A stretch of 55,737 bases of DNA from Chrysochromulina tobinii (lineage: Eukaryota): contig JWZX01003112.1 in assembly GCA_001275005.1 (NCBI GenBank), positions 1 through 55,737 of the forward strand, given 5' to 3'. Position 1 is the first letter of the stretch. The number at the start of each line of letters is the position of its first letter. The position numbers were made by a program, and so were the translations under genes. Below are positions 2,743 through 43,634 of the stretch, piece by piece. The notes beneath the pieces were generated by a model. It saw only the letters and a list, made by a program, of their open reading frames with translations, had not been told where the DNA came from and ran no database searches.

Positions 2743-2880
2743 TGTGCGCGACCGTAAAAGAAATCACGCTAGACGTTTAGAAAGCTGTAGAATTTGTATG
2801 CGGTCCCCAGGCCCTAAGTGACCGTTCACAAGAAAGCCCCACAAAAAATTCGTTGGGAGATCATTCACACGTGAGTTCAC

Positions 2881-3583: not shown

Positions 3584-3833
3584 GATCGATTTCGCTTCAG
3601 CGTGGTCGCGTAAATGACGCCGCGATCAGCATGAGAGCGTATTCGAGTCGCACTGTTCGGCTGTGCTTGGGCTTGAACGCGTTTCAACACGCTAAACGCG
3701 CGCAACTCGTCCGAGCGCGGCAGCTCATGTGCGTCTAGCGAGTTCACTCGAGCGGAGTTCGATTATTTCTCAAAAGTGGTGACCGAAGGCGTCGTCGGCA
3801 AGCTCGAAGCTGACCGTGACGCGTTTCACACAT

Positions 3834-5854: not shown

Positions 5855-5986
5855 GCGTCGCTTATATGCGAGCCAAAAAAGGAACGAGCATGAAGGCAGT
5901 TACGACTAACCGATTGGGCCTTGCGCCCTGAAACTTGCCATCACGTTTTGTCCAAATTAGGGGGATTCATCGTGGTTCCTTCGCGG

Positions 5987-6737
5987 ATGCTCTCCGATGG
6001 CTCGCCGATGAGCGATCGCGAGTTCCTCGCTGTGCACGGCGTCCAGGAGGCGCTGGCCGCGGCGGTCTCCGAGATTTTAAGCACCCGCCCCTCTAATCCC
6101 ATCCTGGCTATCCGCGACATTCTGATCGCCAAGGAGGCGGCAAGGGCACTCTCAGAGGGCCTCGGCGAGATGGGCACCGACCCCAATTGGCAGTTCAAGT
6201 ACAGCAAGCGCCGAAATGCCTACGGGATGGGGATTTACGCCGAGGTGCGCGTTGCCCACACCGCGCCGTTTGCTTGCGAGTGCCGCGCCGCGGGGAGATG
6301 CGCCACACAACTCGTGCGCCACACAACAGATGCCGACTGCTCGTTCACACGTCCTGCAGGAGGATATTCCAGCGGGATCCCTCGTCTGGCGCTTCGAGCT
6401 TGGCGTGTCCGCGTCCGAGTACTCCACCGAGGAGTGCATGCAAGCCAAGCTCGCGACCCTGTCGGTCGAGGAGGCGACCGAGCTGCTCGACCACACCTAC
6501 GTGAGGCAGGGCCGCATCTTCAATCCACACCTCGATGGGCCGCTCATCAACCACTCACTGGAGCCCAATTGCTCTGTGAGGGCCGGTGACTCGGAGTCGG
6601 GCTCGTATGCGATCCGTGACATCAAGAAGGGTGAGGAGATCACTGAGAACTACAACAGCTACGATGCCAAGAAGGACTGGCCTCGCTGGTACGTCAATCT
6701 GATGGAATCCCACGGCATCATGGATGACTACTACTGA
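5987..6737 (+). CDS. SET-domain protein with an N-terminal Dpy-30/RIIa-like dimerisation motif
   Basis: GMGIYAE|EDIPAG, INHSLEPNC and AIRDIKKGEEITENY. N-terminus FLAVHGVQEALAAAVSEILSTRPSNPI. Intron at ~6246-6359. Confidence 0.85.
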
Positions 6738-7528
6738 GGCCACGGGGCGTCGGCATAGGGCAGTACGTAGCAGTCATATCGAGCTGTCAGCGGCATTGGG
6801 GGTTCGAGAGTTTACGATGTAGTTGAAGTGATCCTGAGTGTTGCATATTGATATTAGTTAGATTCACGTTTGTCGTTTCAACCGCTCGACCGCGCACGGG
6901 ATTTTAATTTGATCGTGCCCGCCCGCGCGCGCCCCCGGCCGGGCGCCCGGGCCGTAACCTCTGGGCGCCACCGTATCAACACTTAAGGTTTTAGAGAGAA
7001 GAGACGGTGCGGAGTGCGAGTCAGGAGACGATCCAGGACCACATCCGCCCCCGCCGCCCCCGGCCGACCGCATTGCGGGTTTGCGGCCGACCCCGCCCGG
7101 CCGGTCCGAATGACGTCGTGTACCGTACTGTGAGTCCGTGGCGCCGCCAGCGGCACGCGAACGACGACGGTCGACGCGGCCGATCAGGCCGGCTAACGTC
7201 ACCGCCGCATCGCATACACATACAGTCCAGTACAGGCTACATCTGCGGGCCTCACCCGTCCGGCAAGCTCCACGCGCCATGGCCACGCGCGCCCCCTGTA
7301 CAGAACGACTCATCGGCTAGTTCACATTCACAGTCACGCATCGGCTAGTTCAGACATCGTCGTGTGACCTGTAGGATTCGTCAATTCGTCAATTCGGTAT
7401 GTGGAGGATCCCTACGACGCGCGTCTTGCGTCTTCGCAACTCCAGCCTGCCGCTTGCGTCGACCGCTTGCGCACTCAGCTCGCCCTACGCCCTGGGCAGT
7501 ACGGGCTAGTTCACATTCACAGCTCGCG

Positions 7529-10500: not shown

Positions 10501-11613
10501 GCTGCCCATGCTGGCCAGCTCCGTCTGATCGTCTCCCCATCCCGTCTCCACAGCCGTCTCGAGGTCCGCAGCAAAGGGCATCGCGCCCATGTCGCGCTCG
10601 CCAGCGCCGTCCTCCTCATCGTCGTCCGCGGCGGCGAGCGCAGCGCGATCCGCGAGCTTCGAGTCCACTTGATCAGTCCACTCGGCCTCGGGCAACAAAC
10701 GCACCGCCACGATGTCTCCGTCAATGGCGCGATTCAGCGCCTCGTCGCCGCGTAGCAAGATCGAAGTATGCCCCTTCAAGCTGCTCACGAAGACGGCACC
10801 CTGGCGCGAGTTGTGGCGCGAAATGTTGAGCTTGCCTTGATGAAGCTCGCCCGCCGTGAGCCCCGCCTGCAGCTGCGAGAGCGGCAGGTGCGCCACGTAC
10901 CGCACCGCACCCTTTTCCCTTTTCCCGCCGCCGCCGCCGCCGCCGCCGCCACTCTCCTCTCTCGAGCCCCCACCTCCTCCTCCGCCGCCGCCGCCGCCAT
11001 CGGCGGGCGCACTCGCGAGCACATCCATGAGCTCAGCCGCGTCGGCGCGCGCGCGCACGTGCTCATGGATGCTCTCGCACTTTAGCCCAGCGTCCCGCGC
11101 GAGCCGCCGGTTCTCTGCGTCGTTCGTCAGTAAGAGCACCTCGACTCCCGCCTCCTCCCCTAGCTGGGACTGGTACCATTGCGTGGCGACGCGGATGGCG
11201 CGGTCGTTGCGGTCATTGGGCGACTCGCCCGGCCGCCGCGCCACGAACGTCTCGCGGTGGAACTCGTTGCAGAAGACGTGGAAGCGACGCTGCTCGTCGG
11301 CGATGATCGAGCGCAGCCGCTTGTACACCGAGAGCTTGTTGTGACGCACCTCGTCGAGGACGGTCTGCAGCACGATCACGTCCGTAAGCGCCGGCCTCTC
11401 GAGCAGATCGATCTGGTGCAGCACCACGTTCGTGTCGAGCACATAGTAGCGCTCCGCGCCCTCGGAGAGCTTGGGCTCTAAGTCGGGTCCGTCGAGCTGT
11501 GGCGCGCCGGTGGGCAAGTCGTCGCGCAAATACGTCTGGCGCACGTGCGTCTTGACCGCGCCGCGCCGCGTGCGCTTGAGGAAGACCCGGTTCGCTGCGG
11601 AGGCGTGCTCCAT
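7529..11613 (-). CDS. DIS3: Exosome exo/endoribonuclease DIS3/RRP44
   Basis: PIN domain ([27 protein letters not shown]) and RNB domain ([44 protein letters not shown]). About 8 introns. Stop after IEPVLPRA. Confidence 0.95.
8148..8299 (-). mobile_element. Tandem pair of 76-nt introner-like units forming one DIS3 intron
   Basis: Two units, 8224-8299 and 8148-8223, each running GTACGC...CCCCACAG, interrupt the PIRR|YAD motif. Confidence 0.75.
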
Positions 11614-11864
11614 GGAGCGCGCACGGCGTGAGCGTCTGGCCACGAGTCCGCAAGCGCCGGGCTCGTGTTTCGGCGCGTCCACGTCGTCGAAGAGCGGAAC
11701 AGTTTCGGGGCGCTGTGCTGGTTTGTTACAGTCCAAACTTTGAGTCTGTCGGCCTGCGGAAAAGAAGTTTCACGTTAACGTTGAATGTACATATCGCCAC
11801 TAAAAATTTATAAAAACTCCAGCAATTGAACTCCAGGCCACTAAGTCCCACTACCTTTCTCTTT

Positions 11865-12656
11865 TCAAAGCTCGACCGAGTGTTCCCCTCCTTCTCCGTG
11901 CATTTGCTGGACGCCGCCTCCGCGCACCGTGGCGCGCGTGATGGTGATGCGCTGCTTCGGCATCACGAAGATGCCTTCCTTGCGCGTCTCGACCTGTTCG
12001 AGGGCGGCCAACACCTCGTCGCCCTCCATCACCTTGCCAAACACGGTGTACTCATTGTCCAGGTGCGCCGCCCGCCCGAGCAGCATCGAGAACGAGGAGC
12101 CGCCGCTGTTGGGATCCTCTGTGCGCCCCATCGAGAGGATGCCGCGCACATGCCGGATCGATGTGAATTCCGCAGGCACGGTCTTCATCGCCTCGGTCGA
12201 GCACTCTTGCGAGAGCGTCTTGGTGACTGCTCCGGCATAGATCGACTGAATTTGCGCCACGAAGCCCTTGTCGACCCGAAAGATGTGGTCGGTGTCATAG
12301 CATCCCAGCCGGAAGAGCTTGGAGATGTGCGCCACCGTCACTGGAGCGGCATTGGGAAAGAATGCGAGCACGACCTTCCCGAAGCCTTCGATTTCGAGAG
12401 TAATGCGCTCATCGCCCAATTCCAGCAGCTTTGGGTCGACCGGCTTTGGGCACGAGTTGCACGCCACCGGGCAGCCCGTGTGCATGAACCCAGGGTTTTT
12501 GGAACACTCGCCAGACGTCGCCCAGTTTTTGCAGTTGTCATGCTCGTCAACGCAAGCCTCGTCGCACGCGGCGGTTGTGAGCACGGCGAAGAGGAGAGCG
12601 TACGCAAGACGTTGCGTGGGAGCCCGACGACCGACGACGGGAAAGCGGTCGCGCAT
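11865..12656 (-). CDS. Cyclophilin-type peptidyl-prolyl isomerase with signal/TM segment and ShK domain
   Basis: ShK motif CVDEHDNCKNWATSGECSKNPGFMHTGCPVAC. Cyclophilin motifs IFRVDKGFVAQ, LSMGR..PNSGGSSF and HLDNEYTVFGKV. Confidence 0.92.
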   Translation of the reverse strand: MRDRFPVVGRRAPTQRLAYALLFAVLTTAACDEACVDEHDNCKNWATSGECSKNPGFMHTGCPVACNSCPKPVDPKLLELGDERITLEIEGFGKVVLAFFPNAAPVTVAHISKLFRLGCYDTDHIFRVDKGFVAQIQSIYAGAVTKTLSQECSTEAMKTVPAEFTSIRHVRGILSMGRTEDPNSGGSSFSMLLGRAAHLDNEYTVFGKVMEGDEVLAALEQVETRKEGIFVMPKQRITITRATVRGGGVQQMHGEGGEHSVEL

Positions 12657-12849
12657 GTGGCTGCCTCTTTCGCCGACGGTCGGAGTCCGACTGACTCGCC
12701 ACGACTTGTGGAAGCCTCCAAACTTCTTGCGATGTGAATGCTGAAGCGGGAACAAGGCCAAGACGAGCTGTTTATGGTCTGAAGTCCGGAAAAAATTTCG
12801 CATCAAATTAGGCATTTAGACAATGGAGCAACTGTGCGTAATCACGTGA

Positions 12850-14091
12850 ATGCTCCTGGCCCTTGTCCTCACCATCGCTTATGGTCAGCATGAGGAGGAG
12901 GCTCAAACGCTGGAGCCGTATAAACTCTACTCCAACTTCGACATATCCCACTTGATACGGCCAGGGATGAGTTGGTACGAGCTGTTGGATATTCGTCAGC
13001 AGCTCCGGCGGCCGACCCTCTCATTCTATGTGGACAAGAGGCAGTACAAGGCTCGAATGACGGAGCTCGGCATCGACATTCCGCAGATATATCACGTCCA
13101 GAATGCGGACCCCGCTGCGGACGAGGCTACCTTCGAGAGCATCACGCAGAGCCTCGAGAACCTTCTCGCCGTGCAGAAGGACTACGTGGCCAAGCCGACG
13201 CATTTATCGTGCTCCGACCAAGTCTATGTGGTTAAAAATGGGTTGAACATCTACTCGAAGCTACACGCGCCCGTGCAGCCGCGCCTTGTCGCCGCCAACA
13301 TGACGATGGCGCTTCGCACACGCAGCAGTGTGTGGGGAGAGAGCTGGGCCTTGCACCACGTGCCTCCGGGCATCCTGATTGAGGAGCGCATCTCCGCAGG
13401 GGGCGACGACGACACCGCTGCCCTCGAGTTCAAGACGATCGTGATCTGGGGCCGCGTGTGGGCCTCCGAGGTCAAGCGAGGGACGGACACCCTGCAGATC
13501 TTGGGGCGAGATGGGCGTGGTTTGCAGGGCGAGGGGCAGCACCCCGACCTCGCTCAGGTGGAGTGGGCACGCGTGAGGTCTCTCGCCGAGCGGCTGGCCG
13601 TCCACACGGACTGCTTTCGTGTCGACATCTTTGTCGCCGAGGCGCTCGCCTCTCGCCGCTCGGGCCTCACGGCCATTGACGAAACACGCGCAGAGGAGGA
13701 GGAGGAGGAGGAGGAGGAGGAGGAGGAGGAGGAGAAAGAGGAGCAGCAGCACCAGCACCACCAGCACCACCAGCACCACCAGCAGCAACCTGAGCGTGCG
13801 CGCATCTCGAGGTATCTCGTGAGCGAGGTCGAGATCTTCATGACGCAAAGCCTGCCGCTGTTCAAGCAGGCCGCGGCGCTCTGGCTAGAGGGATACAGCC
13901 GACGCATCGAGCTCATCCCAAATGGGGATATTCGCGGACCTTATGCGAGCATGCAAGACCCGGAGCGCGAGCAAGAGCGCTCCCACTTTGCCACGCTGCG
14001 CGACCGCGAAGCCGAAGGGCTCGGCTGGGCGAACACGCTCGGCAGTGCTCGCACGTACGGCTCACTTGAGCCCTCCTTCAAACACCTGTAG
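12850..14091 (+). CDS. Secreted TupA-like ATP-grasp protein
   Basis: Signal peptide followed by VDKRQYK, YVAKPTHLS, ILIEE, EFK, FRVDIF and VSEV, in ATP-grasp motif order. Contains a poly-E/QH insert. Confidence 0.65.
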   Translation: MLLALVLTIAYGQHEEEAQTLEPYKLYSNFDISHLIRPGMSWYELLDIRQQLRRPTLSFYVDKRQYKARMTELGIDIPQIYHVQNADPAADEATFESITQSLENLLAVQKDYVAKPTHLSCSDQVYVVKNGLNIYSKLHAPVQPRLVAANMTMALRTRSSVWGESWALHHVPPGILIEERISAGGDDDTAALEFKTIVIWGRVWASEVKRGTDTLQILGRDGRGLQGEGQHPDLAQVEWARVRSLAERLAVHTDCFRVDIFVAEALASRRSGLTAIDETRAEEEEEEEEEEEEEEKEEQQHQHHQHHQHHQQQPERARISRYLVSEVEIFMTQSLPLFKQAAALWLEGYSRRIELIPNGDIRGPYASMQDPEREQERSHFATLRDREAEGLGWANTLGSARTYGSLEPSFKHL

Positions 14092-14245
14092 TCATACCAT
14101 TCTCGAGTGACGAGACAAAAGACAAAAGTAAAATGCAGCAAATTCAAAAGGTGCTCATGAACTTTCGCCGAGACGACGCGTGCAAGTTTGTCTCGTGGGG
14201 AGCCCACGTGTGTCGTGATAATGGTCGACGTGAACAGCGGACGCA

Positions 14246-15373
14246 ATGGATGCCACGGAGCGGTGGCGGTCGAGATGCGAGGCTTCCGGTCTCGGCTACC
14301 TGCTGCAGCTGCGCTCACGCCAGTCGCACGAGTTGCCGGCCGCGCTCTTCGACGGCCTCAGCCTTTCTTCGGCTGGGATTGGCCATGAATCATGCGACAG
14401 AGGTGCAGGCAAGGCCATTGATGATTACATCCAGATGGCAAAGGCACTCTCCGACGATGTATTCGCTCCCCTCGCACGTACACGCTGTTCTGGTTGCGGC
14501 CGCTCGCAGCGATGGTACTGCAGCCGCTGTGAGATGTGGATGGACAATGTGCCTGAAGCCCATCGCCAACCGCTCGTGCTCCCCTTCCAAGTGACGGTGA
14601 TTGTCCGTGACGCGATCGAGGACTCGACCGGTATACATGCCGCAGCCCTGGCTACTCCGGTCGTCGTCCGTCACTTCCCGCACGGCCTTCGAAATGACGT
14701 GGCCACGACAGGTAGCGACGAGCCTTGGATCCGATTCGACGCGTCCTCGGTCGTGCTGTACCCGTCCCCAGGCAGCATGACGGTCGCGGAGCTCGTGGAG
14801 GAGCTGTGCCACACGGCCGAGGCCTCGAGGGTTGCTGGGGCTGCCGAAGCCGCCGAGAGTGAGCGAGAGATGCTGAGCCAGCCTCGACCAACGCCTCTGT
14901 GCACGATCATCGTGGTCGATAGCAAATGGCATAACGATGGTGCGGTCCTAGAGCATCCGTCCATCCGCGGTCTTCGTCGCGTTCGGCTGGAGTACCCGCC
15001 GGACACGTCGCGTATCTGGCGCAGCCACGCAAGGGCGACCGCTGGCTGCCTGAGTACGATCGAGGCCCTCTACTGCTTCGCCCGAGAGTTCAGTAGCTGC
15101 TCACGACGGCGCCAAACGGATCTTCCAAATTTGGGACTTCCGGCACCTCCCAATTCGGATACGAGCCTCTCCTGCTGCGGATACGAGCCTCTCCTGCTCC
15201 TCTTTGCGCTCATACACCATCGAATCGCCTCGCAGACGCGGGCGGGCGATCAAGCTCCGTTCGAGCCCGCTCGGAAGGCCGCTGCCTTGGCGCACCGCAA
15301 GCTCTCTGCGGCGAAGGGTTCGCGCGCCGCTCCCATGGCTGCGCAGGCTGAGGTGGCGCAGCCGGCCGTATAG
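14246..15373 (+). CDS. DTW-domain tRNA-uridine aminocarboxypropyltransferase (DTWD1-like)
   Basis: RCSGCGRSQRWYCSRC zinc motif, STGIHA, VVLYPS, VVDSKW and CLSTIEALY. Confidence 0.85.
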   Translation: MDATERWRSRCEASGLGYLLQLRSRQSHELPAALFDGLSLSSAGIGHESCDRGAGKAIDDYIQMAKALSDDVFAPLARTRCSGCGRSQRWYCSRCEMWMDNVPEAHRQPLVLPFQVTVIVRDAIEDSTGIHAAALATPVVVRHFPHGLRNDVATTGSDEPWIRFDASSVVLYPSPGSMTVAELVEELCHTAEASRVAGAAEAAESEREMLSQPRPTPLCTIIVVDSKWHNDGAVLEHPSIRGLRRVRLEYPPDTSRIWRSHARATAGCLSTIEALYCFAREFSSCSRRRQTDLPNLGLPAPPNSDTSLSCCGYEPLLLLFALIHHRIASQTRAGDQAPFEPARKAAALAHRKLSAAKGSRAAPMAAQAEVAQPAV

Positions 15374-15862
15374 GTTGACGTGAGGTTCGTGAGCGGCACC
15401 CGACTTAGTAACGCGACGGTAGCCGGTCCACCTCCTATTTGTAGGTTAGATAAGTTTTCTAAGTTAAGCACTTAACGCGGTTATGAAAGGCAGAGGGAGC
15501 GAGAGACGAGTTCCGAATCCACTAAGTCGATATACAACCGTAGTCGTCGTTGACGAACCGTGATTGACGAGATCCAATCGGGGGGATCCGAAAATCGGAA
15601 ACGAAACCCAATCGGTTCCAGACTCCAATGGTTGCCCTCATGCCGGACGCGTTCGACAGAAAACTCAGGATGCCGATCGCACAGGTCATGCCGATCGCAC
15701 AGGTCACTATGATCGAGCTCCTCCACGCGCTCGACGCCGCGCTGCACGGTGGCGAGCCACTCACTGAGATCGAGTATCGAACAATTAGGATCGCGATACA
15801 AGCGGGCAACAAAAGAACCGAGAGGAGCACACTCCCCGCAATCCAGGCGGCATGCCGTCGCC

Positions 15863-16135
15863 TCTGCAGACCTCAACAATTCCCGTCCGCTGAAAGTGCG
15901 GCGGCCGCCAGCGGCAGCAAGGCGCCCCGATGCACCTTCTGGGTGACTAAGATACAGAAATGTATCGCCGACGAGACAGGAGGTACTGCCACCGCGATTT
16001 GCAGACCTCAACAATTCCCGTCCTCTGCGAGTGCGGCGGCCGCCAACGGCTGCAAGGCGCCCTGGTGCACCTTCTGGTTGACCAAGCTTCGAAAATGCAT
16101 CGCCGACGAGACGGGGGATACTGCCACCGCGATAT
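15863..16135 (+). repeat. Imperfect ~135-bp direct duplication within an unassigned ORF
   Basis: The peptide CRPQQFPS..AAAA.G.KAP.CTFW.TK..KCIADETG.TATAI is encoded twice in tandem. Confidence 0.75.
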
Positions 16136-16543
16136 CGGACGGACGGACTGGCGGCGCCGGTAGCTCATCCGCCCCCCCCAAGGCGTGCTCGCAAGAGGAA
16201 GTCGCAGCACTCGATGGGCTCATCTCACTCGGCGAGAGGGGTAGTAATGTCCCTCGCACTCGATGACGTATGTGTGCAGGTATGCAGGTCTTACGCCACG
16301 CGCCTAGAACGGCTAACCGCCCACCGCCCCACCAGGAGGTGTTTCGCCGGCTAATCAAGATAGACGAACAACGACTCAGGCATAATAAAGTATATGTTAC
16401 GTTATCGCGATAGTGAAACTCAAACTGCCGACTCCCCCGTCCAGCCCCAGGCGCGCCTCGTGCGCGCGAAACGACATGACACATGTAACATCGAACACGG
16501 AAAAGTGCGGTCCACGGCTCCACGCGGGAATAACCGTCGCGTC

Positions 16544-19500
16544 TCAAGCATGGAATATGGAAAACCGTTGTCGGGGTTGCGCTCCGTCTACGCTGCTCGC
16601 CGTCGAGGGCGCCGTCGCGGGCGCCGTCGCCTGCTCGCCCTGCTGCACGCCTCTCAAGGACTGCCGGTGGCGCAGACCCTGAAGGACCTCCTCGCGCGGC
16701 ACCCCCGCGGCGATCAACTCAACCGCGTCGGGGTGGCTCGCAAGCAGTTGGTCATCGAGCGCCGTACCGAGCACTCCGTTCACGGCTTCACCGAAGGCCG
16801 ACGGCGGCGGCCGCCGCTTCTGCTTGGGCCTCTCGCTGCCGTCCTCATCGGCGACGCGCGCCGAGCGAGGCTGTCCCGGCGGGTCAGAGCGGAAGCTCAC
16901 GACGGGCGTTCGTTTGGAGGCGGCGTCGGTGCCCATGGCCGCCACGAGCGCCTTGCCCCTGGTCTCGTTGCCGCTTTGGCCAGTGCCGCTTTGGACGGTG
17001 ACGCGGCGCGGGATGGCGCCGCCCGCAATAGAGCCATCCGAGTTGGCGTCAGCGATGATGCGAAGCTTGCGGACGGCACGGCCAGCACCCTCCTTCCACA
17101 ACTTGGCCGCGGCCATGCCCTCCGTACAATCGACGTCGTCGACTGCGAGGATGAGGTCGCCCGCGTGCAATCCCGCCTTGGACGCCGGCGAGTTAGGCTC
17201 CACAGCAGTCACCTTGTTGAATTCGTTCACGGTCAAGCCGACCATTTCGTTCGGTTTCAGTTGCAGCGTGAGGCTCTTCTCGAGCCCTACGCACGTATTG
17301 GACCGTTGGAACATGCTGGCGCGTGAGCCCGATTTGGGCAGCCAGGGACGCACCCTGTCCGCGTGGACTTGGAATTGGGAGCCCGCCCCCAATAATTGGA
17401 CGACGTACATGTTCGTGGCGGGATCGAAGGCGTCGACGACGGCGCGCTTCTCGTCGCCGCCACTGCGCGTCACCAGGACGGTGCTGCCTACCTGCGGCCC
17501 TGCGGGGCGCACCTTGTCAGCGGTTGCGGACACGAGGATCCCCGTGCCCTCGAGAAGAATGTTGTAGCGATTGGTCACCTTGTCAAAGTCTTGGACGATG
17601 CCGCGCTTCTCGTCGCCATTGCTGCGCGTCACGATGATCGTTGCCTGGGTGGCCGGGCGCATCTCCCTGTCCCTGCACTGCTTAAGCTTCCCGGAGCCGA
17701 TCCTATCGAGATCCACCATGTAGTAGTTCTTGGACGCATCGTACTGCGTCACAAAGGCGATGCACTCGTCCCCGCTGCTGCGCTTCACGTACACCCTGTC
17801 GCCGACCTTGTATGCCGGCCCGGGCGCACGCGGCGGCGCCAGAGTCCTCGGCTCATCGGGATTGGAACTTGGCTGGCGCGACGAGGTCGGCCCGAAGAGG
17901 TTCCTTGTAGACCCTCCGAAGAAGTTCACGCGGCTCATGCCCAAATTAGGCAGTCGAGGAGTGCCGCGCGAGCTCTCGCCGCCAGATCGCGATCTCATCG
18001 AGGCGCGAGATCGGAGCTGGCCGATGAGGGCCGCGCGCTGCGCGCGTAGCCGCGCGGCCGTCGCCTCGAGCGACTTTTGGTTCCGGCGCTGCTCGCGGCG
18101 CACGAGGATCTGCACGAGCACGATGAAGGTGGCCGAGGCGATGAAGGGGATGGCAGTGATGAAGAGCAAGCGCAGCCATCCGGACGTGTTTCGGCTTTGG
18201 ATGCAGAGCGGTTCTCCATTAGCGAGAGGCTCGTAGGCGCCCTCGCAGGTCGGGTACCTGATGAGGGAGGTCATCATGGACAATCAGGGTCACTCAGGGT
18301 GGATCGGGTACCTGATGAGGGAGGTCATCAACGGCAATCAGGGTCACTCAGGGAGGATCGGGTACCTGATGAGGGAGGTCATCAACGGTAATCAGGGTCA
18401 CTCAGGGAGGATCGGGTACCTGATGAGGGAGGTCATCATGGACAATCAGGGTCACTCAGGGTGGATCGGGTACCTGATGAGGGAGGTGATCATGAAGGCA
18501 ATCGGTCGCAATCCTCCTGATGAGGAAGGCAATCGGTCGCAATCCTCCTGATGAGGAAGGCAATCGGTCGCAATCCTCCTGATGAGGAAGGCAATCGGTC
18601 GCAATCCTCAGCGGCAATTGCGTACAGAAAGTTGAGCCCTTCGAGGTCGTCGACCGAGAGGCACGTGCGAACACGGTGAAGCGACCTCGAAAACATGATG
18701 GATTCGGTGACGACCTCCACCGTCGTCGCGGCCAACCGCACGTGGTCGAGCGGATAGGAACAAGTCGTTGCGTTCATCCTCTGATTGGCCTTTAGGTTGT
18801 GTCGAGACTCCACGTCGGGGTGGTGGAAGCCAAGCACGTGGCCCACCTCGTGTGCGATCGCGGACTCGAAGCCGTGGCATTCCCAACAAGGTGTGAAGAT
18901 GCGGTAATAGAACATCGGTGCGAAGATGATGAAGAAGATCGCCAAGAGCAGTGGGATTGTGGGCATGACGGACACGTACTCCATCACCGCCGTGCACCGA
19001 CGGCTGCCGCACGTCAGATGCTCCTCGCTGCCGTGAGAGTTGACCGCCATCGACGAGCCTCCTTGGTTCAGCCCGGACAGGAGGTTCCGGAACGTCTTCG
19101 AGAGTTCCAAGTTCTTCGACGGGGATCCGGCCGCCGTTGCGAGCCTGGCGGGCTTCATCGTGAACATCAGATTGCTCGACGGGCCGGCGGGTGGCGACGG
19201 CGGCGGCGAGATCGAGATCGAGCTCAGAGGGCTGCTCGAGCCGGCAGGTGGCGATGGCGGCGGCGAGGCAGCGCGCGCCGGCTCGTGCTGCGCCTTCCTC
19301 TCCCTCATCGACGTTCGCGAAGCAGCATCGAGCTCGCCAATCTCGGACTCGTCCGTCCCTTTCGGGAGGCAGCACGCGGCGGTAAGGCTCATAAGCCCGA
19401 GGTAGAGCACGTAGAGCACGGCCAAGCAGAAGAGCACGCCGCACACGATCCGCGCGATCAGCACCACGTCCACGTCCTCGCCCTGCCACATGTGGAAGTA

Positions 19501-22836: not shown

Positions 22837-24558
22837 CCGCCGACAGCGAGCTGTACGCGGGTCTGGAGCCTGCACTCGCATCGTCGCTGCACTCGATGCT
22901 GCACGACCGGCAGGGCCTCGAAGTCCTCGACCAAAAGGGGACCGACGAGAAGGAGAAGGTGCTCCCAGCGACGCGACGAAGCCCTCGTGCATGCAAGTGC
23001 TCACCACGGCGCCGTGCTCCCTTTTGCACAGGTGCTCCAGCGACGCGACGAGGCCCTCGTGCAGAACAAGGTCTTACGCGCCCTCTCGCGTCGTGGACTC
23101 TCCTTGAGGGAGCTCTTCCACCTGCTCGATACGAATGGCGATGGGGAGATCGACCCCTCCGAGTTCGTCAAGGGCGTGCAGGTGTGATGAGCGCGCGCTG
23201 AGAAGGATCGCTGAGTGCCATGGCGTGATGATCGCTGAGTGCGACGGATTGGCGCGAGATCGCATGCGAGTGCTCATCACGGCGCGAGATCGCATGTAAG
23301 TGCTCACCACGGCGCGAGTTCGCATGCAAGTGCTCACGACGGCGCGATATTGCATGCCCCGCAGGAGCTCGAGGGATGTCTGAGCGTCTCTCAAGTCGAG
23401 CGGCTGATGACCATCATCGACACCGACCACAGCGGCACCATTGACTTCCACGAGCTCGCCAAAGGGCTTCAGAAGATCGACCTGCGCGTCGAGGTGAGCG
23501 CGCCTCATGGGTACCCTCTGGGCCCCCCACCCTCTGCTTGCCCCTGCTTGCCTCTGATTGCCCCTGCTTGCCTCTGATGGCCTTCCCCTTGATCGAGCGC
23601 AGGTGTACGAGTATATGCTCGTGGTGATGCGCCTCTATTCCGCCGAGATGGCGCGCACGGCCCAGCTGCTTCGCGCTCGCTTCGATCAGGCACGCGCTGA
23701 TGTGGCCACCCAAGCCGCCAAGGACATTGACCTGGCCAAGGATCCCGCAGCCAAGGTGGCCGCCGCTAAGGCCGCCACCGCCATCGCGGAGCTCACGGCC
23801 AACGGCCAGCTGCCTGCCGAGGCAGTCAAGACACTTCTCAAGCAGCTCGACGCTCCCTTTGCGCCGGTACGACTGATGACGACTGATGACGACTGATGAC
23901 GACTGATGACGACTGATGACGACTGATGACGACTGATGACGACTGATGACGACTGATGACGCTCCCTTTGCGCCGGTACGACCGAGTGGATTCAGTTGGG
24001 GAGTGATGACCTCATGAGTTCCCGTATGTGCCTCGGGGTGCCTCTGAGTGCTTCCCTGATTGCACCCCTCATTAGGCGGACGCTAGCCGACTCATTCACG
24101 AGATGGGAAGGGATTCACTGCCGGCTGGCGCCGGCGGAGCCCCGAACGCGAGCAAACGCGCCTCTGAGCGCCTCTCCCTTGCACCCGATGTTGGGGGTGC
24201 GCCGCTCACGCTACCGATCAATCGCGACGCCTTCACACGCGTGTGCATCGCCAACGGGTTCACTGCACTGCAGAGCTCCGCGTTCAAGGAGATGGGGCAG
24301 GCCATCCAGTCCTCGGTCAACGCTATGATGGTCGCGAGCTCCTTCGTGCGCAAGCTCCCCTTTGGCAAGAAGAAGACGCTGCCGCCGGACGCGGGCGGAC
24401 CACTGATGACCACTGATGACCACTGATGACCACTGATGACCATTGATGACCGCCGGACGTGGGCAGACCAGCACCGGCCGAAGCCACCTAATTTGGTCCA
24501 AAAGGAGACGCCACCGGCGGACGCTGGCACGGGACGAGGCCGAGCGCCTCCGGCCTGA
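20415..24558 (+). CDS. Large coiled-coil protein with EF-hands (multi-exon)
   Basis: Long first exon with coiled coils. Later exons encode LDTNGDGEIDPSEF and IDTDHSGTIDFHEL. The 3' exon structure is uncertain. Confidence 0.65.
23872..23960. repeat. Intronic (GACTGATGAC)n tandem repeat
   Basis: About 9 perfect 10-nt copies. Confidence 0.95.
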
Positions 24559-24964: not shown

Positions 24965-27397
24965 TTAAGCCCTGAGATTCGAATCGGAGTGCTCGAGCCT
25001 TGCGACGAGCGCGGGCGCGTGCTGAGCGAGCGTCGCCGCATTCAGCTTGCCAAGAGTCGCGACCGCAGCCTTACGCACACTCGACACGGAGTCCTCGAGC
25101 CTTGCGACGAGGGCGGGCGCGTACTGAGCGAGCGTCGCCGCATCCAGCTGGCCAAGAGTCGAGACCACCGCACAACGCACACCCGAATCGGAGTCCTCGA
25201 GCCTTGCGACGAGCGCGGGCGCGTGCTGAGCGAGCGTCGCCGCATCCAGCTGGCCAAGAGTCGAGACCGCCGCCTCACGCACACTCCAATAGGTGTGCAC
25301 GAGCCTTGCAACGAGCGCGGGCGCGTGCTGAGCGAGCGTCGCCACATCCAGCTGGCCAAGAGTCGAGACCGCCGCCTCACGCACATCCCAATCGGAGTCC
25401 TCGAGCCTTGCGACGAGCGCGGGCGCGTGCGGAGCGAGCGTCGCCGCATCCAGCTTGCCAAGAGTCGAGACCGCCGCACAACGCACATGCCAATCGGAGT
25501 CCTTGAGCCTTGCGACGAGCACGGTCGCGTGCTGAGCGAGCGTCGCCGCATCCAGCTGGCCAAGAGTCGAGACCGCCGCACAACGCACACTCCACACGGA
25601 GTCCTCGAGCCTTGCGAGGATCGCGGGCGCGTGCTGAGCGAGCGTCGCCGCATCCAGCTGGCCAAGAGTCGAGACCGCCGCACAACGCACATCCGAATCC
25701 GAGTCCTCGAGCCTTGCGACGAGCGCGGGCGCGTGCGGAGCGAGCGTCGCCGCATTCAGCTTGCCAAGAGTCGAGACCGCCGCCTTACGCACACCCGACT
25801 CGGAGTGCTCGAGCCTTGCGAGGATCGCGGGCGCGTGCTGAGCGAGCGTCGCCGCATCCAGCTTGCCTAGAAGCGAGACCACCGCACAACGCACACCCCA
25901 ATCGGAGTGCTCGAGCCTTGCGACGAGCGCGGGCGCGTGCGGAGCGAGCGTCGCCGCATCCAGCTTGCCAAGAGTCGAGACCGCCGCCGTACGCACATCC
26001 GAATCAGAGTGCTCGAGCCTTGCGAGAATCGCGGGAGCGTGCCAATCGGAGTCCTCGAGCATTGCGAGAATCGCGGGCGCGTGCTGAGCGAGCGTCGCCG
26101 CATCCAGCTTGCCAAGAGTCGAGACCGCCGCCTTACGCACACTCCACACGGAGTCCTCGAGCCTTGCGAGGAGCGCGGGCGCGTGCTGAGCGAGCGTCGC
26201 CGCATTCAGCTTGCCAAGAGTCGAGACCGCAGCCTTACGCACGTCCGTCTCGGAGTGCTCGAGCCTTGCGAGGATCGCGGGCGCGTGCTGAGCGAGCGTC
26301 GCCACATCCAGCTGGCCAAGAGTCGAGACCGCCGCCGTACGCACATCAGAATCGGAGTCCTCGAGCCTTGCGAGGAGCGCGGGCGCGTGCTGAGCGAGCG
26401 TCGCCGCATCCAGCTGGCCAAGAGTCGAGACCGCCGCACAACGCACATCCGAATCCGAGTCCTCGAGCCTTGCGAGGATCGCGGGCGCGTGCTGAGCGAG
26501 CGTCGCCGCATTCAGCTTGCCAAGTGTCAAGACCGCCGCCTTACGCACACCCGACTCGGAGTGCTCGAGCCTTGCGACGAGCGCGGGCGCGTGCGGAGCG
26601 AGCGTCGCCGCATCCAGCTGGCCAAGAGTCGAGACCGCCGCCTCACGCACATCCGTCTCGGAGTCCTCGAGCCTTGCGACGAGCGCGGGCGCGTGCTGAG
26701 CGAGCGTCGCCGCATCCAGCTTGCCAAGAGTCGAGACCGCCGCCTTACGCACACTCCACACGGAGTCCTCGAGCCTTGCGAGGATCGCGGGCGCGTGCTG
26801 AGCGAGCGTCGCCGCATTCAGCTTGCCAAGTGTCGAGACCGCCGCCTCACGCACATCCCAATCGGAGTCCTCGAGCCTTGCGACGAGCGCGGGCGCGTGC
26901 GGAGCGAGCGTCGCCGCATCAAGCTGGCCAAGAGTCGAGACCGCCTCCCTACGCACACTCCAATCGGAGTGCTCGAGCCTTGCGAGCGCCTCGACAACCT
27001 CCGGTGTGAATGCGGCCATCGTATATTCAAGCGCCGTCGCCGCCGCTTTTCGCTCCTCGCCAGCGGCGACGGCCTCCTCGGCTTTTTCTCCGGCTGGTTG
27101 CAAGTGCATGAACAACGAGAGCCACTCGGAGACTCCTTGCCGCGGATAGAACCGCAGCCGCTCGTTCAACTGTTTGTTCTCACCCCTTAATCTCTCGACC
27201 TCGTCCCTGAGCCGTTCGACATCCTTGCGCAGCTTCTCGAGTTCTTCTGAACAGTCTGCGCTGTTCGCGGCAACCGTTGGTGGCGCCGCGCTGGGGCTGT
27301 CACCGGCGGCGCAAGTCTCCGAACCGAGCGCCGAGTCCTGCTCCAGCAGGGTCAAGCCCTTGACACTGCTCGACAACGCGCGGAAGCTATGCTGCAT
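24965..27397 (-). CDS. Coiled-coil plus 34-aa HEAT-like tandem-repeat protein (copy A, no HET domain)
   Basis: Intronless 810-aa ORF with 19 full repeats of consensus EDSDSDVRxAAVSTLGxLDAATLAQHAPAILARL, plus one internally deleted unit and one terminal partial unit. Confidence 0.88.
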   Translation of the reverse strand: MQHSFRALSSSVKGLTLLEQDSALGSETCAAGDSPSAAPPTVAANSADCSEELEKLRKDVERLRDEVERLRGENKQLNERLRFYPRQGVSEWLSLFMHLQPAGEKAEEAVAAGEERKAAATALEYTMAAFTPEVVEALARLEHSDWSVRREAVSTLGQLDAATLAPHAPALVARLEDSDWDVREAAVSTLGKLNAATLAQHAPAILARLEDSVWSVRKAAVSTLGKLDAATLAQHAPALVARLEDSETDVREAAVSTLGQLDAATLAPHAPALVARLEHSESGVRKAAVLTLGKLNAATLAQHAPAILARLEDSDSDVRCAAVSTLGQLDAATLAQHAPALLARLEDSDSDVRTAAVSTLGQLDVATLAQHAPAILARLEHSETDVRKAAVSTLGKLNAATLAQHAPALLARLEDSVWSVRKAAVSTLGKLDAATLAQHAPAILAMLEDSDWHAPAILARLEHSDSDVRTAAVSTLGKLDAATLAPHAPALVARLEHSDWGVRCAVVSLLGKLDAATLAQHAPAILARLEHSESGVRKAAVSTLGKLNAATLAPHAPALVARLEDSDSDVRCAAVSTLGQLDAATLAQHAPAILARLEDSVWSVRCAAVSTLGQLDAATLAQHATVLVARLKDSDWHVRCAAVSTLGKLDAATLAPHAPALVARLEDSDWDVREAAVSTLGQLDVATLAQHAPALVARLVHTYWSVREAAVSTLGQLDAATLAQHAPALVARLEDSDSGVRCAVVSTLGQLDAATLAQYAPALVARLEDSVSSVRKAAVATLGKLNAATLAQHAPALVARLEHSDSNLRA

Positions 27398-27494
27398 TGT
27401 CCGCGACCCCGGACGTATGGCAAGACAGGACCGCTTTGGGGATGTCGGTTGCTAAGTTTGCGCCACGTGTGACAGACAGTTTCGTCAGAAAGTA

Positions 27495-27575
27495 GACAGT
27501 TTCGTCGCGGTTCAGCCTCAACTTCGGGTGTATTCTGACCACCTGCATGGACTACAGCTGTACCTGGGCCTAGAA
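27495..27575 (-). promoter_or_regulatory. Conserved upstream block of HEAT-repeat gene A
   Basis: Reverse complement of 43554-43634 with only a few mismatches. Confidence 0.55.
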
Positions 27576-27694
27576 ATTGTGTATGAAAAGACCAACTGCG
27601 ATGCGAAACGCGGTCCCCCGGTTTTCCCCCGGTCAGCTGGCGGCCGGCAGGACTAGCGACTACGGCAGGACTACGTGGGTCGGGTGGGGGGGCG

Positions 27695-28384
27695 TCAAAG
27701 AATCACACAGCTAGCCTGCCCTCCGTCCTCGCCGCGCTGTCGGATGGCATTCGAAGCGGCCAACTCGAGCACGCTCCTGGTCGGATCTACCATTGCGGGC
27801 AGAGTCGCCCCGGCGATCAGCAACTTCCGCACGACTTCTCCATGGCCTCGCTTCTGAGCGATGTCGATGGCGGAGACGGCGTTCGCCGTGACCGTCCTAG
27901 CGTCGACATCGGCGCCGGCGGAGATGAGCAGTGTGATGACATCCGCCTGCCCCCACGCGGCCGCGGCCATCAGGGGCGTAAAGCCCAAGAGCTTCGACGT
28001 GCCATTCGGATCCGCTCCGTTGAGGATGAGCTCCTTGGCCACCGACACGTGCCCTCGCTCAGCCGCGAGCATCAGTGCCGTCTTTTGACCAGAATCCATG
28101 GACGTGTCGGCAGGTACGCCCGAGGCCAAGAGTACACGTACCTTGGTCAGGTTGCCGCGGTCTATCTCCAACATGAGCTGCTCGCCGGTCATAGGCTGCT
28201 CAAACGAGGCCGGCTCTCCAGTGGCGGCGATGAGCCCTTGCTGCCTCGGAGCGACGACCTTAGTCCTGTATACAATGTCACCGTCGGATGTAGCGCTCAC
28301 CACCTCCCTGTTCAATGCGCGCACAGCCGAGATGCCACTGCCGCGCGGGCTGTGAGCGAGCGTCAGCATTGCCTGGACCCACAC
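27695..28384 (-). CDS. Ankyrin-repeat protein with C-terminal CaaX motif
   Basis: TALMLAAERGHVSVAKELILNGADPN and TPLMAAAAWGQADVITLLISAGADVD. Ends in CVIL. Start codon uncertain. Confidence 0.85.
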   Translation of the reverse strand: MWVQAMLTLAHSPRGSGISAVRALNREVVSATSDGDIVYRTKVVAPRQQGLIAATGEPASFEQPMTGEQLMLEIDRGNLTKVRVLLASGVPADTSMDSGQKTALMLAAERGHVSVAKELILNGADPNGTSKLLGFTPLMAAAAWGQADVITLLISAGADVDARTVTANAVSAIDIAQKRGHGEVVRKLLIAGATLPAMVDPTRSVLELAASNAIRQRGEDGGQASCVIL

Positions 28385-28825: not shown

Positions 28826-31684
28826 TCATCCGACCGGCCGAGTGCTCACATAATGGTACTCGGCGAAGTGCCCCAGGTAGAGACGCGTGCGCAGCTCGAC
28901 TTTCCACACATCGGGCGGCTTGACCACGTGGCAGTAATCCTCGGAGAGTGACGAGATCACGCAGATCTCGGCCTTAAAGAGCACCTGCGGGGACGGAGGG
29001 CACCGTGGTGGGCACTTTATTTGCATGCAGAGGCGCAGTCGAGGGGCAATCAAGCCATACCGACATGGCGAGCAGGGTCGCCTCATCGATTGCATGCAGG
29101 GTCGGTATGGCTCTGCATGCAATCAAGCCATACCGACATGGCGAGCAGGGTCGCCTCATCGCCCCATGTGCGCCCATGCTGTTCCATCTCGGCGAGGTAC
29201 GCATGCCAATTGTCCACCCCCACAGAATCCTTGAGCATGAAGCGCTCGCCCACCTGATGGCATGCAATCGGGTGATGGCAATCGGGTGATGAATCACGCA
29301 ATCAGGTGACGGCAATCAGATGATGGATCACGCAATCAGCCCAAATCTGGCGCTGTGAGGCACGAGAGGCACTCGGGGGCTCTCGGGAGCAGCCCCATTA
29401 AGGTCATTAAGGTCATTAAGGTCATTAAGGTCATTAGGGCTTTCAGGAGCAGCCCTAGGCAACGTAAGGCAATCATCTTGCCATCGTCCATCGCTCGACT
29501 GCCATTCGTCAAATGCAATCACATGCAATCACATGCAATCATATGCAATCATATGCAATCATATGCAATCATATGCAATCACCTTGCCATCGTCCATCGC
29601 TCGACTGCCATTCGTCTTGAGCCATTGCACCGCCTTTTGACGAAGCTTGAGAGCATTGTAGCCGCCAAAGCCCACCTGCTCGAGCATCGCCATCCGAGGC
29701 AATCAGTGGCAATCACATGCAATCATACGCAATCAGGCTATCAGAGGCCATCACCTGCTCGAGCGGGCAATCAAATGCAATCATATGCAATCATATGCAA
29801 TCAGGCCATCACCTGCTCGAGCTGGTCGGCGATCGCGTGGAACTGGCAGTTGTTATCGCCGGGCACGTCCTTGATCTTGAAGCCGCGCACCCCAAGGTGG
29901 CGCGCGAGGCGAGAGCGTGGGTCCTGCGGCAGGTGCTTCTCGGCTTCCTTTTCGCGTGCCTTGTTAACGCGGTCGCGCAGCGCCTGATGAGGGGGGCAAT
30001 CAGAGGTCATCCAGACGCAATCAGAGGTCATCCAGACGCAATCAGAGGTCATCCGAGGCACTCCAAGGCACTTGCCACACACCGGAAACGGACTCAGAGG
30101 CACTCAGAGGCACTCAGAGGCACTCAGAGGCACTCAGAGGCACTCAGAGGCACTAAGAGGCACTCAGATGCAGTCAGAGGCACTCAGAGGCACTCAGAGG
30201 CACTCAGATGGCCTTCCCACCTGCAGCTCAGCCGACGGCTCCGACGCCACGATCCCACGCGTTGTGTTGGGCGCCATGATCCCACGCGTTGGCGGCTTCG
30301 CGCTTGGCGGCTTCGCGTGGTAAGGCCCCTCGCCACCAAGCGTGTCTGGCCTAATCGTGTCTTCCCAAATGTTCTTCGGCCTCTCCGACCTTGTCCCCGC
30401 CGCGGCGGCAGCGGCGGCGGCGGCGGCGGCGGCGCTGCCACCAATCTTTCCAGCGGGCATAGCGGCCATCGGGATGGCCACCTTGGGATACATGGTGTTC
30501 GCATACTCGTACGACGGCGGCGTTGGCGCCGGCCGCGTTGGCGTCGTTGGCGTCGGCTCGTCGGGTCGCCCACTACGGCGCTCGTCGGGTCGCCCACTAC
30601 GGCGCTCGTCGGGTCGCCCACTACGGCGCTCGTCGGGTCGCGCGAACGCCGACGGCCCTTCTGCGGCGCCGCCGCCCATGGGTGCGCTCACGACGGCGCT
30701 CAAGTCCGCAGCGTCGCCACCAGTGGGCACGTCGGGCGCCGTAGTGGGCATGGTTGGCGCCGTAGTGGGCACGTTTGGCGCCGTAGTGGGCAACATGGGC
30801 GCCGTAGTGGGCAGCTGATACGGGCCCGCCAGAGGCCGTGCGAGCGCCGTAGTGGGCAACGCGAGCTGCTGCTGCTCGACCTGCTTCTCGACGCCTTCGC
30901 ACCGAATCGTGTAGTACGGGGGCATGTCGTCGTTGTGAACCACCAAGACCTCAGCGGGGATCGGCGCACCCTGAGCCGGATGATAGAGGACCACGTCGCC
31001 CTTGGCGAACAGCACGGCGGGTGGCGGCGGGGCGCTCGGCGGCAGGGCGTAGGGAGTTCCGGGCATCGGCGACGGCGCTGAGACTCCCCGAGCAGGAGCC
31101 ATGCTCGAGGCGGCGTCCGTCGCATCGCCGCGCCCCAATACGAGCGGTACACCCGCTACGCCTGCCCCGGCGGCCGCTACGCCGGCCGCCGCCACGCCAG
31201 CCGCCGCGGCGGCGGCCGCAGGCTTGAGCTTGGGCTTGAGCTTGGGCTTGGGCTTGGGCCTAAAGCTGGCCCAGCGCTGCTCGAGCTGCGCAATCATGTC
31301 CATCCGAAACTGGTCGCCATCGGGCGCCGCCTCCGGCAGCGGCGCGGGCTCCGCCTCGTTGAGCATCCTCGTCAGCCGTGGTTTGAGCTCCTCGAGCGCG
31401 TCGACCACCGATAACAGGTCGCGCTGGAGTTTCAGGTGCGCCGTCGACTTTTTGTTGATGGAATTGGCCTTGCTGATCGTCTCGTAGAACTTTGCGAAGC
31501 GAAGCATGAACACAAAGGCCTCCTTTAGGCTGCCGAGTGTGTTCGCATTGTACTTTTGGAAGGCGACGACGCGCAGGTGCTCGGCCTGCTGGTAGAGGCG
31601 CTCGGGGTTTAAGAAGCTGGATTTGTCGCCGAGGGACCCGATCTTGTCGCCCTCGGCCACGAGCCGCTCCATCTCACGCCCCAT
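28826..31684 (-). CDS. OTU-family deubiquitinase with N-terminal helical (USP8/MIT-like) domain
   Basis: DVPGDNNCQFHAIADQL, WGDEATL and HFAEYHYVS catalytic motifs spread over several exons. N-terminal EAFVFMLRFAKFYETI and a Pro-rich linker. Confidence 0.85.
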
Positions 31685-32596: not shown

Positions 32597-35500
32597 CTGG
32601 AGCTGGTGCACGTGCTGGCTCTGGTCGTCCATATTAGGCACGCGCCTCTCATGTCTCACGCAAACGAGCGCACCTGGCCGCCGCGGCCGCCGCCGCCGCC
32701 GCCGCGGCCCCCTTTGGCTGCGGCGCCCTTGGCCGCGCCTTTGCCCTTTCCCTTTCCGCCTTTGCCCTTTCCGCCTTTGCCCTTGCCAGCACCTCCCTTG
32801 CCAGCCCCTCCCTTGGCGCCGGCCGCGCCGTCGACGGTGATGATGGCAATCGTGGACATGAGGGAGAAAGCGCTCATCGGGATGATCGAGAAGCTCACCC
32901 CTAGGCGGGCCGCGGGCCGCAAGCCGCTGCCGCTGCCCTCGAGGGGGGCGCTCTCAGCCCCCCGTGACGAAACCGCGCCCCGTGACGAAACCGCCTCCCG
33001 TGACGAAACCGCGCCCCGTGATGGTGTGGCCGCCACCGCCCCGTGTGTCTTCAGCTGCCCGCCGTGCCCAGATGGCACGCCCGCCTCCGCCGCCTCCGCC
33101 GCCTCCGCCGCCTCCACCTCCGCCAGCTCCACCAGCTCCGCCTCCGCCTCCCAGTCAAACACCTCCTCGACTGCGGCCACAGCCGCGGCGAGCCCTCGGA
33201 CCACGGCAGCGGCCGCAACGGCCTTAGCCCCCTTGCCCTTCTTGCCGACGAGCTGATGGCGAAGGTCATTAGCGCCCAAGCTCGCGCTCACGGCGCTCCC
33301 CTTGCCGCCCAACACGGCGCTCCCCTTGCCGCCCAACACGGCGCTCCGCCCCTTGGTGCGTCCTCCGCGCGCGTCCGGCTCGTCCTCCTCCTCGTCGTCG
33401 TCGTCGTCCTCGTGTTCGTCAAACGGTTGCTCGCCGTCCTCCTCCTCTTCGTCGTCGTCGCGTCGTCTTAAGCGCACTGCGAACGCAGGCTCGTCCTCGT
33501 CGTCCTCGTCGTCCTCCTCCTCCTCATCCGCTTCCACCTCCTGAGTGTGCTCGTCGTTGCGCGCGAATCCCTTGCCTTTCCCCTTGCCTGGCATCGACGA
33601 CCCCTTGGCACCGGCCGGGGCGTTGTGATGAGCACTTGCATGCATCGACGACCCCTTGGCACCGGCCGCGGCGTTGTGCGGGCGCTGTGCTGAGCTTCGC
33701 GGTGCCGACGGACGTGGCGCCGAAGGGCGCGGCGCCGACGGCGCGGGGGGCGCGGCGCTGTGCCGAGCACCTGGCGCCGTGTTGGGCTCCGGCGCGGGCT
33801 CAGGCACGGGCGCCGTGTTGGGCTCTGTCTCGGCGCTGATATCGTACACGGCGGACGAGAGGGTGAGCCGGATGACGCCCACGGCGGCGCGTAGCACCTG
33901 ATGAGGGAGGCAATCAGAGGTCATCAGGGTGAGGAGAGTCGGATGACGCCCACGGCGGCGCGTAGCACTTGGGAGCCATGATCGTGCCCTAATGAGGGAG
34001 GCAATCACATGCAATCACATGCAATCAATGCAATCACATGCAATCAGGCCATCACCTGGGAGCCATGATCGTGCCCTAATGAGGGAGGCAATCACATGCA
34101 ATCACATGCAATCACACGCAATCAGGCCATCACCTGGGAGCCATGATCGTGCCCTAATGAGGGAGGCAATCACATGCAATCACATGCAATCAGGCCATCA
34201 CTTGGGAGCCATGATCGTGCCCTAATGAGGGAGGCAATCACATGCAATCACATGCAATCAGGCCATCACCTGGGAGCCATGATCGTGCCCTAGGATCGCC
34301 TCGCCGTTCACAGCGACCAGGAGCTGCCCAGGCAAGATCTCGCCCGACTCGGCGGCGATGCAGCCTGGCACGACCGTCAAGATCGTCGGCGCGCTCTGGC
34401 TGTTCCCCTTGAGAGTGATCCCAAGTCGCGAGCTCGCCGTGGGCTTCTTCAGCTTGATGTTCACAGTGCCAGCCGCCCAGGGGTTGGCAGGTGGCGGCGC
34501 TGCCTCGGTGGCGGCGGCCGGCGCTGCCGCGGCGGTGCTGGCGGCGCCCGGCACGGCGCCCGCCATGAGTCCTTTGCCCACACCTTTGCCAACTCCCTTG
34601 CCCGCACCCTTGGCACCTTTCCCTGTCGACACCGACGCCTCGGCGGCGGCGCTCGTGACGGCGCTCGAGGCCGGCGCCTCCGACGAGGCGCCGTACCGGG
34701 CACTCTTGGGCCCTCCCTTGGGCACCGCGCCGTTCTGGGCGGCCGCTTCGACGGCCGTTGGCGCCGAGTGCAGCCCGAGGCCTTTCGCGCCTCTGACGAA
34801 ACCCTTGGCGCCCGCGACGGCGCCGACGGATGGCGCCGTACCGGGCACGGCGGCCGCCGCCCCGTCCACCGGCGGCAAGGTGCCATCCTCGACGCGCCGG
34901 CGCGCCTCGGTGAGCGCGAGCGTGTCGGCTTGCTTGAGCCACTCCTGCCACGTGGCAGAGGGTCATCAGCGGTCATCAGGGGCAATCAGCGGTCATCAGG
35001 GGCAATCAGCGGTCATCAGAGGCACTCAGCGCACCTGCCACGTGGCGGGCGCGCCGCCCGTCACGCCCTTGCCACCCCTGCCGCCCTTGCCCTTGCCAAG
35101 GAACGCACCGACCTTGCCCTCGGCGTCGAGCGCCGTCGCGGGCGCCTCGGCGAGCCGCCCACCCTTGCCTTTGGCGAACGCTTCGCCTTTGCCGAGGCGC
35201 GGCACGGGCGCACCGGCCTCGTCGCCGCCTTTGGCCGTCGCTGGGGCTGCAGCTCGCTCCGCGGCCGCACGAGCTGCAGCCGAGATCGAGATCGACATCT
35301 CGTCGGCGTCTCCGGCGAGCAGCTTCTCCTTTTCGAGCCGCAACCGCTCATTCTCCGCGCGGACGCGCCGAAGCTCTTCCCGCAGCTCCGCATTGGCAGA
35401 CATGCCGGAGGGCACATCCCCTCCTAGGTTCTCGAGCATTTGTTGCCGGGCGAAGGCCGCCGCGCCCTTGCCCTTGCCGCCGCGCGTACCGGCGCCAGCA

Positions 35501-43553: not shown

Positions 43554-43634
43554 TTCTAGGCCCAGGTACAGCTGTAGTCCATGCAGGTGGTCAGAAAACA
43601 CCCGAAGTTGAGGCTGGACCGCGACGAAACTGAC
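43554..43634 (+). promoter_or_regulatory. Conserved upstream block of HEAT-repeat gene B
   Basis: TTCTAGGCCCAGGTACAGCTGTAGTCCATGCAGGTGGTCAG...GCGACGAAACTG is shared with copy A. Confidence 0.55.

Follow-up and report, generated by a model that had tools for sequence, protein, structure and literature searches.

The window, a 55,737-nucleotide stretch of Chrysochromulina tobinii DNA (contig JWZX01003112.1), is eukaryotic and rich in GC; besides housekeeping genes and tracts of decamer repeats it contains two related repeat-protein genes, here called A and B. Gene A (24965-27397, minus strand) is a single open frame of 810 residues that encodes a disordered N-terminus, a coiled coil, an N-cap and a HEAT-repeat array, and lacks an effector domain. 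In its structure model the N-terminus is disordered, residues 50-81 form the coiled-coil helix (27155-27250, minus), and the remainder is a helical solenoid. The linker and N-cap (26981-27055, minus), which end in FTPEVVEALA, lead into the array (24968-26980, minus), composed of 19 full 34-residue repeats and a terminal half, with variable positions 6, 7, 8, 11 and 19. One repeat is broken: only 14 residues are present (446-459; 26021-26062, minus) after an in-frame loss of 20, and they appear in the model as a low-confidence loop. Assignment to the HEAT families PF02985/PF13646 lies above the cut-off (E 1.5e-95), and the model consists of alternating helices.

Gene B (43693-47943, plus strand) is a single open frame of 1416 residues with an N-terminus like that of A, followed by a HET/TIR-like cassette (44191-45099, plus) and a HEAT array (45175-47867, plus) of 25 full repeats and one 43-residue variant, rich in DSG-x motifs. 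Its last 20 residues (47880-47943, plus) look off-repeat and follow GTGAGT, a possible splice donor, so the true 3′ end of B may differ. Neither A nor B contains a NACHT or NB-ARC domain.

Alignment of the two genes bears out the common N-terminus, coiled coil and repeat scaffold proposed in the first-pass annotation. The N-terminal part and the part from ERKAA onwards align at 80-86% DNA identity, and A's coiled coil has three heptads (63 nt) fewer than B's. The same annotation had A skipping a segment of about 1 kb, placed at 44100-45098 in B. The loss is real and its bounds need correction: the missing segment is exactly 44191-45099 of B, a 909-nt in-frame gap with its junction in A (AAGE|ERK) at 27056|27055 (minus), and 44100-44190 is an Ala-rich linker, shortened in A, that lies outside the cassette. 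Outside the coding frames, a segment upstream of A (27499-27575, minus) aligns with 43554-43630 upstream of B.

Gene A is letter-identical in a second assembly (L001). The repeat order of B is not stable between three assemblies of near-identical DNA, with one repeat more in L003 and L005, and these differences may reflect misassembly or haplotypes. A metagenome scan gave at least eight loci, of which four match the window closely, one belongs to another strain, and three are weak coiled-coil matches that were set aside. In the other strain (L002, 5796-6551), the stretch immediately before the B-locus start codon is 756 nt in place of about 50.

Immediately upstream of A, and also on the minus strand, lies an ankyrin-repeat frame (27695-28384, minus; Pfam Ank_2, E 1.6e-25), with just two RNA pieces of depth 2, from one run. 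The neighbours in 553-16547 and 48511-50847 are ordinary (BTB, choline kinase, phosphatase, pieces of Rrp44/Dis3, ShK-cyclophilin and DTW), as are a PDZ gene (16544-18283) and a CRAL-TRIO gene. No larger immune cluster is evident within the window. Decamer tandem repeats, probably intronic, are spread across it, for example at 1497-1663, 23869-23961, 29509-29804 and 34001-34292.

The HET/TIR-like cassette

The cassette of B has no Pfam match on its own and stays below the 22.5-bit cut-off of Pfam HET (PF06985). We therefore use the label HET/TIR-like in place of the "HET" of the first-pass annotation. For this domain, which Pfam leaves unannotated, a search among 50%-cluster representatives yields 1671 relatives at E ≤ 0.001. 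An alignment of 86 of the best 150 relatives, chosen as short and with good coverage, together with the query (87 rows) reveals three conserved motifs, SHRW, WxD and RFWTxxE. Four of the 87 match Pfam HET at E ≤ 0.01, the best at 7.5e-4 and 20.3 bits, below the cut-off. The glutamate E151 of RFWTxxE is invariant in 87/87 and begins a helix (146-155); in B it belongs to RFWTQFE and is encoded at 44635-44637. By its motif, E151 is the putative equivalent of the catalytic glutamate of TIR domains.

The cassette is modelled with a pLDDT of 94.8. The top three Foldseek matches are TIR domains, all weak (E 0.015-0.089), and the top match in VIA is the SpbK TIR domain (Z 6.9, rmsd 3.9, 110 aligned), tied with nucleoside deoxyribosyltransferases. 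Searched as a profile against PDB, the cassette alignment gives no matches at E ≤ 1, PADLOC recognizes 0/87 of the rows, and on viral contigs 122 stretches fit a search pattern with no relative of the family among them. On its predicted fold the cassette would be a TIR-like member of a HET/TIR-like superfamily, and its enzyme activity is only predicted. HET is related to TIR, and HET homologues are reported in Haptophyceae in the accessible part of Dyrka et al. (PMC4986451); the cluster of close B relatives includes a Chrysochromulina parva protein. Elsewhere, the HET/TIR-like domain is found with PARP-like and HEAT domains, with DEAD helicase and HEAT domains, with a guanylate-binding-protein domain and with C2 (P0046, P0042, P0039, P0044, P0007), and some of these may be gene-model fusions.

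The closest haptophyte parallel is a set of TIR genes whose expression is induced in virus-resistant Gephyrocapsa huxleyi, described in the available part of PMC12489294. They share with B a haptophyte host, a conserved glutamate and a TIR fold, which for the B cassette is only predicted, and they are tied to antiviral states, but they match Pfam TIR models, whereas the B cassette matches no Pfam model, and that part of the paper mentions neither HEAT arrays nor effector-less copies. The same source states that TIR-based antiviral systems have not yet been described in microalgae. We found no description of the present family in the literature on haptophyte HET, TIR/NLR and HEAT/ART immunity, searched mostly in non-subscription papers with supplements aside, nor is it described in the accessible parts of PMC12489294, 10.64898/2026.10.11.758280 and PMC12480563.

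Transcription, origin and retention of gene A

Six metatranscriptome runs have RNA matches to A; in 4/4 of those examined, RNA contigs cover 26998-27424 without mismatches. The junction left by the missing cassette is bridged by single RNA contigs in three of the four, with at least 31 nt on each side. Contigs from all four runs end together at 27424-27428 (minus), 27-31 nt upstream of the ATG, which is likely the transcript 5′ end, a weak hint as the contigs are strandless. Further upstream, three of the four runs leave 27454-27975 empty, and the X14 piece there runs on into sequence from upstream of B. The runs were selected via A, share year and habitat and possibly come from one campaign, and their contigs carry neither strand nor level. 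Over the N-terminus and cassette of B, these A-selected runs have nothing longer than contig matches of 18-41 nt, and contigs can indicate only that a sequence is present. The first-pass annotation had considered that A might be an untranscribed single deletion derivative. A is transcribed and has a second, diverged cassette-less counterpart, P0186, and A itself is probably a deletion derivative.

The direction of change can be judged from relatives. Among 32 stored proteins with the A/B N-terminus, a set with near-duplicates in it and with B recorded twice, 19 carry the cassette, nine a divergent homologue without HEAT repeats and two (A and P0186) neither, their N-terminus passing directly into the N-cap; two are unassigned. 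P0187 begins like A yet runs into the cassette. An RNA contig (43373-43587) from the 3′ end of the gene upstream of B overlaps the B-side copy of the common upstream segment, and this points to the B locus as the parent. The B-locus copy of the other strain is nearer to A (96.6%) than to B (93.0%) over the first 205 and 387 aligned bases. Given this census, P0187, the upstream overlap and the other-strain copy, A is best read, at the level of sequence, as a deletion derivative of a cassette-bearing ancestor and a duplicate, made at the DNA level, of the ancestral B locus. This locus would have been duplicated with about 180 bp of upstream DNA and inverted, 16 kb away; a microhomology-type deletion, with 2 nt of microhomology at the A-B junction, would then have removed the cassette, and repeat shuffling would have followed. 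Origin of A from a splice isoform or its retrocopy was rejected, as the lost segment starts with TGC and not GT or GC, and a retrocopy of B was rejected because the upstream homology reaches about 150 nt past the RNA contig ends. The surroundings of A show neither a target-site duplication nor a terminal repeat.

P0186 is 82% identical to A over 285 residues. The two proteins have in common the junction, the short coiled coil, FYPRQ and the C-terminus, and two variants, the ETD motif and a Cys at position 11 of the repeat, are confined to them among 18 proteins. Apart from whole-unit slippage there are four length changes, three in A and one in P0186, all in frame, which would occur by chance in about 1% of cases. 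P0186 is represented by one record, with about 4.5 repeats; its assembly may have collapsed, and it could stem from the same culture. The N-terminal tree does not resolve the fork that holds A and P0186, so the case for their common origin is made by the shared characters. Constraint on A is weak, since neither the N-terminal pN/pS (0.56-0.91, 103 codons) nor the N/S at scaffold positions (0.74-0.81) is significantly below 1. From the likeness to P0186, the variants found only in these two and the all-in-frame length changes we tentatively count A as retained; it is not a lone dead copy. A further record with the A N-terminus, P0191, in which it is joined to bacterial S3, was discarded as a likely chimera.

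Variable repeats and family modularity

The first-pass annotation listed 19 repeats in A with variants different from those of B. All seven quoted motifs are found in A and none is common with B; in total, A has 14 distinct motifs and B 16, with no overlap. The two arrays differ by nucleotide distance (permutation p=2e-4), and there are no fixed nucleotide differences between them. A private repertoire is usual in the family: P0003, P0006 and P0195 each have their own set.

Over 90 unique family repeats, entropy is highest at positions 11, 8, 7, 6 and 19. The best PDB sequence matches of the repeats are alphaReps, and on these PDB alignments repeat positions 7, 8, 11, 12, 15 and 19 map to alphaRep 18, 19, 22, 23, 26 and 30, in the presumed consensus numbering. 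The peaks at 11, 8, 7 and 19 fall on alphaRep 22, 19, 18 and 30, position 6 corresponds to no alphaRep site, and positions 12 and 15 hardly vary. The six alphaRep-equivalent positions have a minimum-change N/S of 2.3 (p=0.04) in A and 3.5 (p=3e-4) in B; this set of positions was applied only once the per-position table was known, and the repeats are not independent. Pairwise N/S estimates exceed the minimum-change ones and are likewise not independent. C-terminal repeats with diversifying surface sites, as in NLR/STAND proteins, are thus found here, at positions that were not chosen blind. The variable face of the A repeats maps to alphaRep binding positions and is likely a ligand-binding face, with an excess of amino-acid change. 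The accessible part of PMC3754942 gives 18/19/22/23/26/30 as the randomised interface of the artificial HEAT-like alphaRep binders. Natural variation in the present family thus occurs at the equivalents of 18, 19, 22 and 30, but its units have 34 residues rather than 31, 23 and 26 are nearly fixed, and there is an extra variable position before 18. This suggests that natural randomisation targets largely the surface of HEAT repeats that was also picked in the design of alphaReps.

Relatives of the A N-cap and repeats differ in what precedes the array. Among 84 matches to this N-cap and these repeats, 35 have by pattern at least two family-type repeats, and 7 of these 35 carry the HET/TIR-like domain. 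An ADP-ribosyltransferase (ART) is annotated in 6/84, five of them with the same N-cap as A (cluster representatives P0196, P0198, P0199, P0209 and P0215). The ART-HEAT cluster includes a C. tobinii record, and its members differ by one repeat length; the N-termini of the ART proteins are unlike that of A. NB-ARC occurs with similar repeats in P0202 and P0231, and some relatives carry other or no recognised heads. ART and NB-ARC heads on the same N-cap or on similar repeats imply that heads were swapped over the history of the family. In addition, the N-terminus of A is also found ahead of a divergent HET-like domain (hhalign probability 95.9%). Judged from these architectures, modularity is real at the family level, and in this respect the modular effector cassette of the first-pass annotation stands. 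It does not stand for A, whose slot was probably emptied by one deletion, and the proposed search with the common N-terminus for other effectors in that slot returned an unrelated effector followed by HEAT repeats in 0/32 proteins. More widely, similar HEAT arrays are seen with ART, SAP+WGR, NB-ARC, Skp1-type and Dpy-30 heads (P0196-P0199, P0202, P0213, P0231, P0233), with cluster members that differ by 34 residues. The tails of P0008 and P0009 are leucine-rich by eye, with no Pfam LRR match.

[quoted passage not shown] Unlike them, A and B lack NACHT and NB-ARC, use 34-residue HEAT units rather than WD40, ANK or TPR, and have an N-terminal coiled coil; the host is likely a unicellular haptophyte, and A has no head at all. 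The family would work like the fungal HET-repeat receptors, yet it is not an NLR. It is likely an algal, NOD-less family of immune-receptor-like proteins.

Possible roles of gene A

The origin and transcription of A are much firmer than its function. Tentatively, we favour the reading that A is a transcribed effector-less copy that likely holds non-self ligands on its variable repeats without signalling. Full-length members would be activated, with no NOD, when a multivalent non-self ligand clusters their arrays and brings the TIR-like domains together. To gain avidity, A may pair with itself by means of its shorter coiled coil, and it would sequester a set of ligands different from that of B, such as viral proteins, with no output. 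The first-pass annotation had offered A as a sensor-only, decoy or regulatory partner of B. An effector-less binder or decoy is indeed the best reading, but a decoy for B's own ligand is opposed by the motifs: the repertoires of A and B are disjoint, so competition for one ligand is unlikely.

The alternative that survives best, though unlikely, is that A forms coiled-coil hetero-oligomers with B or its paralogues and so acts on them in trans: as a sensor it would gather their TIR-like domains on new ligands, as a damper it would dilute them. A and P0186 both retain the coiled coil and the next helix, 16 kb separate A from B, and the disjoint repertoire of A would broaden recognition. TIR activity requires at least two domains in proximity, according to the available part of PMC9153377. 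A truncated paralogue, Arabidopsis NRG1C, inhibits plant helper NLRs; like A it lacks the output domain and keeps the repeat domain, but it competes for the partner of NRG1A/B (accessible part of PMC12177489), whereas the motifs of A are disjoint from those of B and A keeps its N-terminal coiled coil. Against action in trans, A lacks three central heptads, which would let a hetero-coil pair only in part and would make self-pairing likelier than pairing with B. The N-terminal constraint is weak, and A and B are neither adjacent nor head-to-head on one promoter, with genes between them.

It is quite unlikely that A is a duplicate under relaxed selection, kept open by frame-preserving repeat shuffling and at most a source from which gene conversion draws variant repeats. 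The ratios not significantly below 1 outside the surface positions, the broken repeat and the array with no fixed differences from B would all fit such a duplicate, and concerted repeat evolution is known from the fungal HNWD genes (available part of PMC4986451). Yet the RNA contigs stop at one place upstream of the ATG, P0186 is still open at 82% identity with the C-terminus of A, and N/S at the surface positions of A exceeds 1. A-type variants are found neither in B nor in the other cassette-bearing members examined, which implies little visible flow out of A. It is very improbable that cassettes are actively exchanged at the slot and that A is its empty state: ART domains before the same N-cap in five cluster representatives and the divergent HET-like domain after the same N-terminus would suit it, but none of the 32 proteins joins this N-terminus to an unrelated effector and HEAT repeats, the ART proteins have different N-termini, the junction microhomology is 2 nt, and A's two flanks have no word longer than 10 nt in common.

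Beyond the favoured reading of A as an effector-less binder, a broader picture is possible if doubtful, in which haptophytes would have NOD-less intracellular receptors with a shuffled, alphaRep-like HEAT array and HET/TIR-like, ADP-ribosyltransferase, NB-ARC or no heads. In it, A would be a maintained headless, antibody-like decoy or a coiled-coil partner that widens detection by B, for example in giant-virus infection. If A were only a relaxed duplicate it would be ordinary, and the family would still be of interest. Its binding array is variable, its TIR-like domain lies outside Pfam annotation, and the headless variant supplies a natural built-in control, which makes the family a concrete candidate for intracellular virus recognition in bloom-forming haptophytes.
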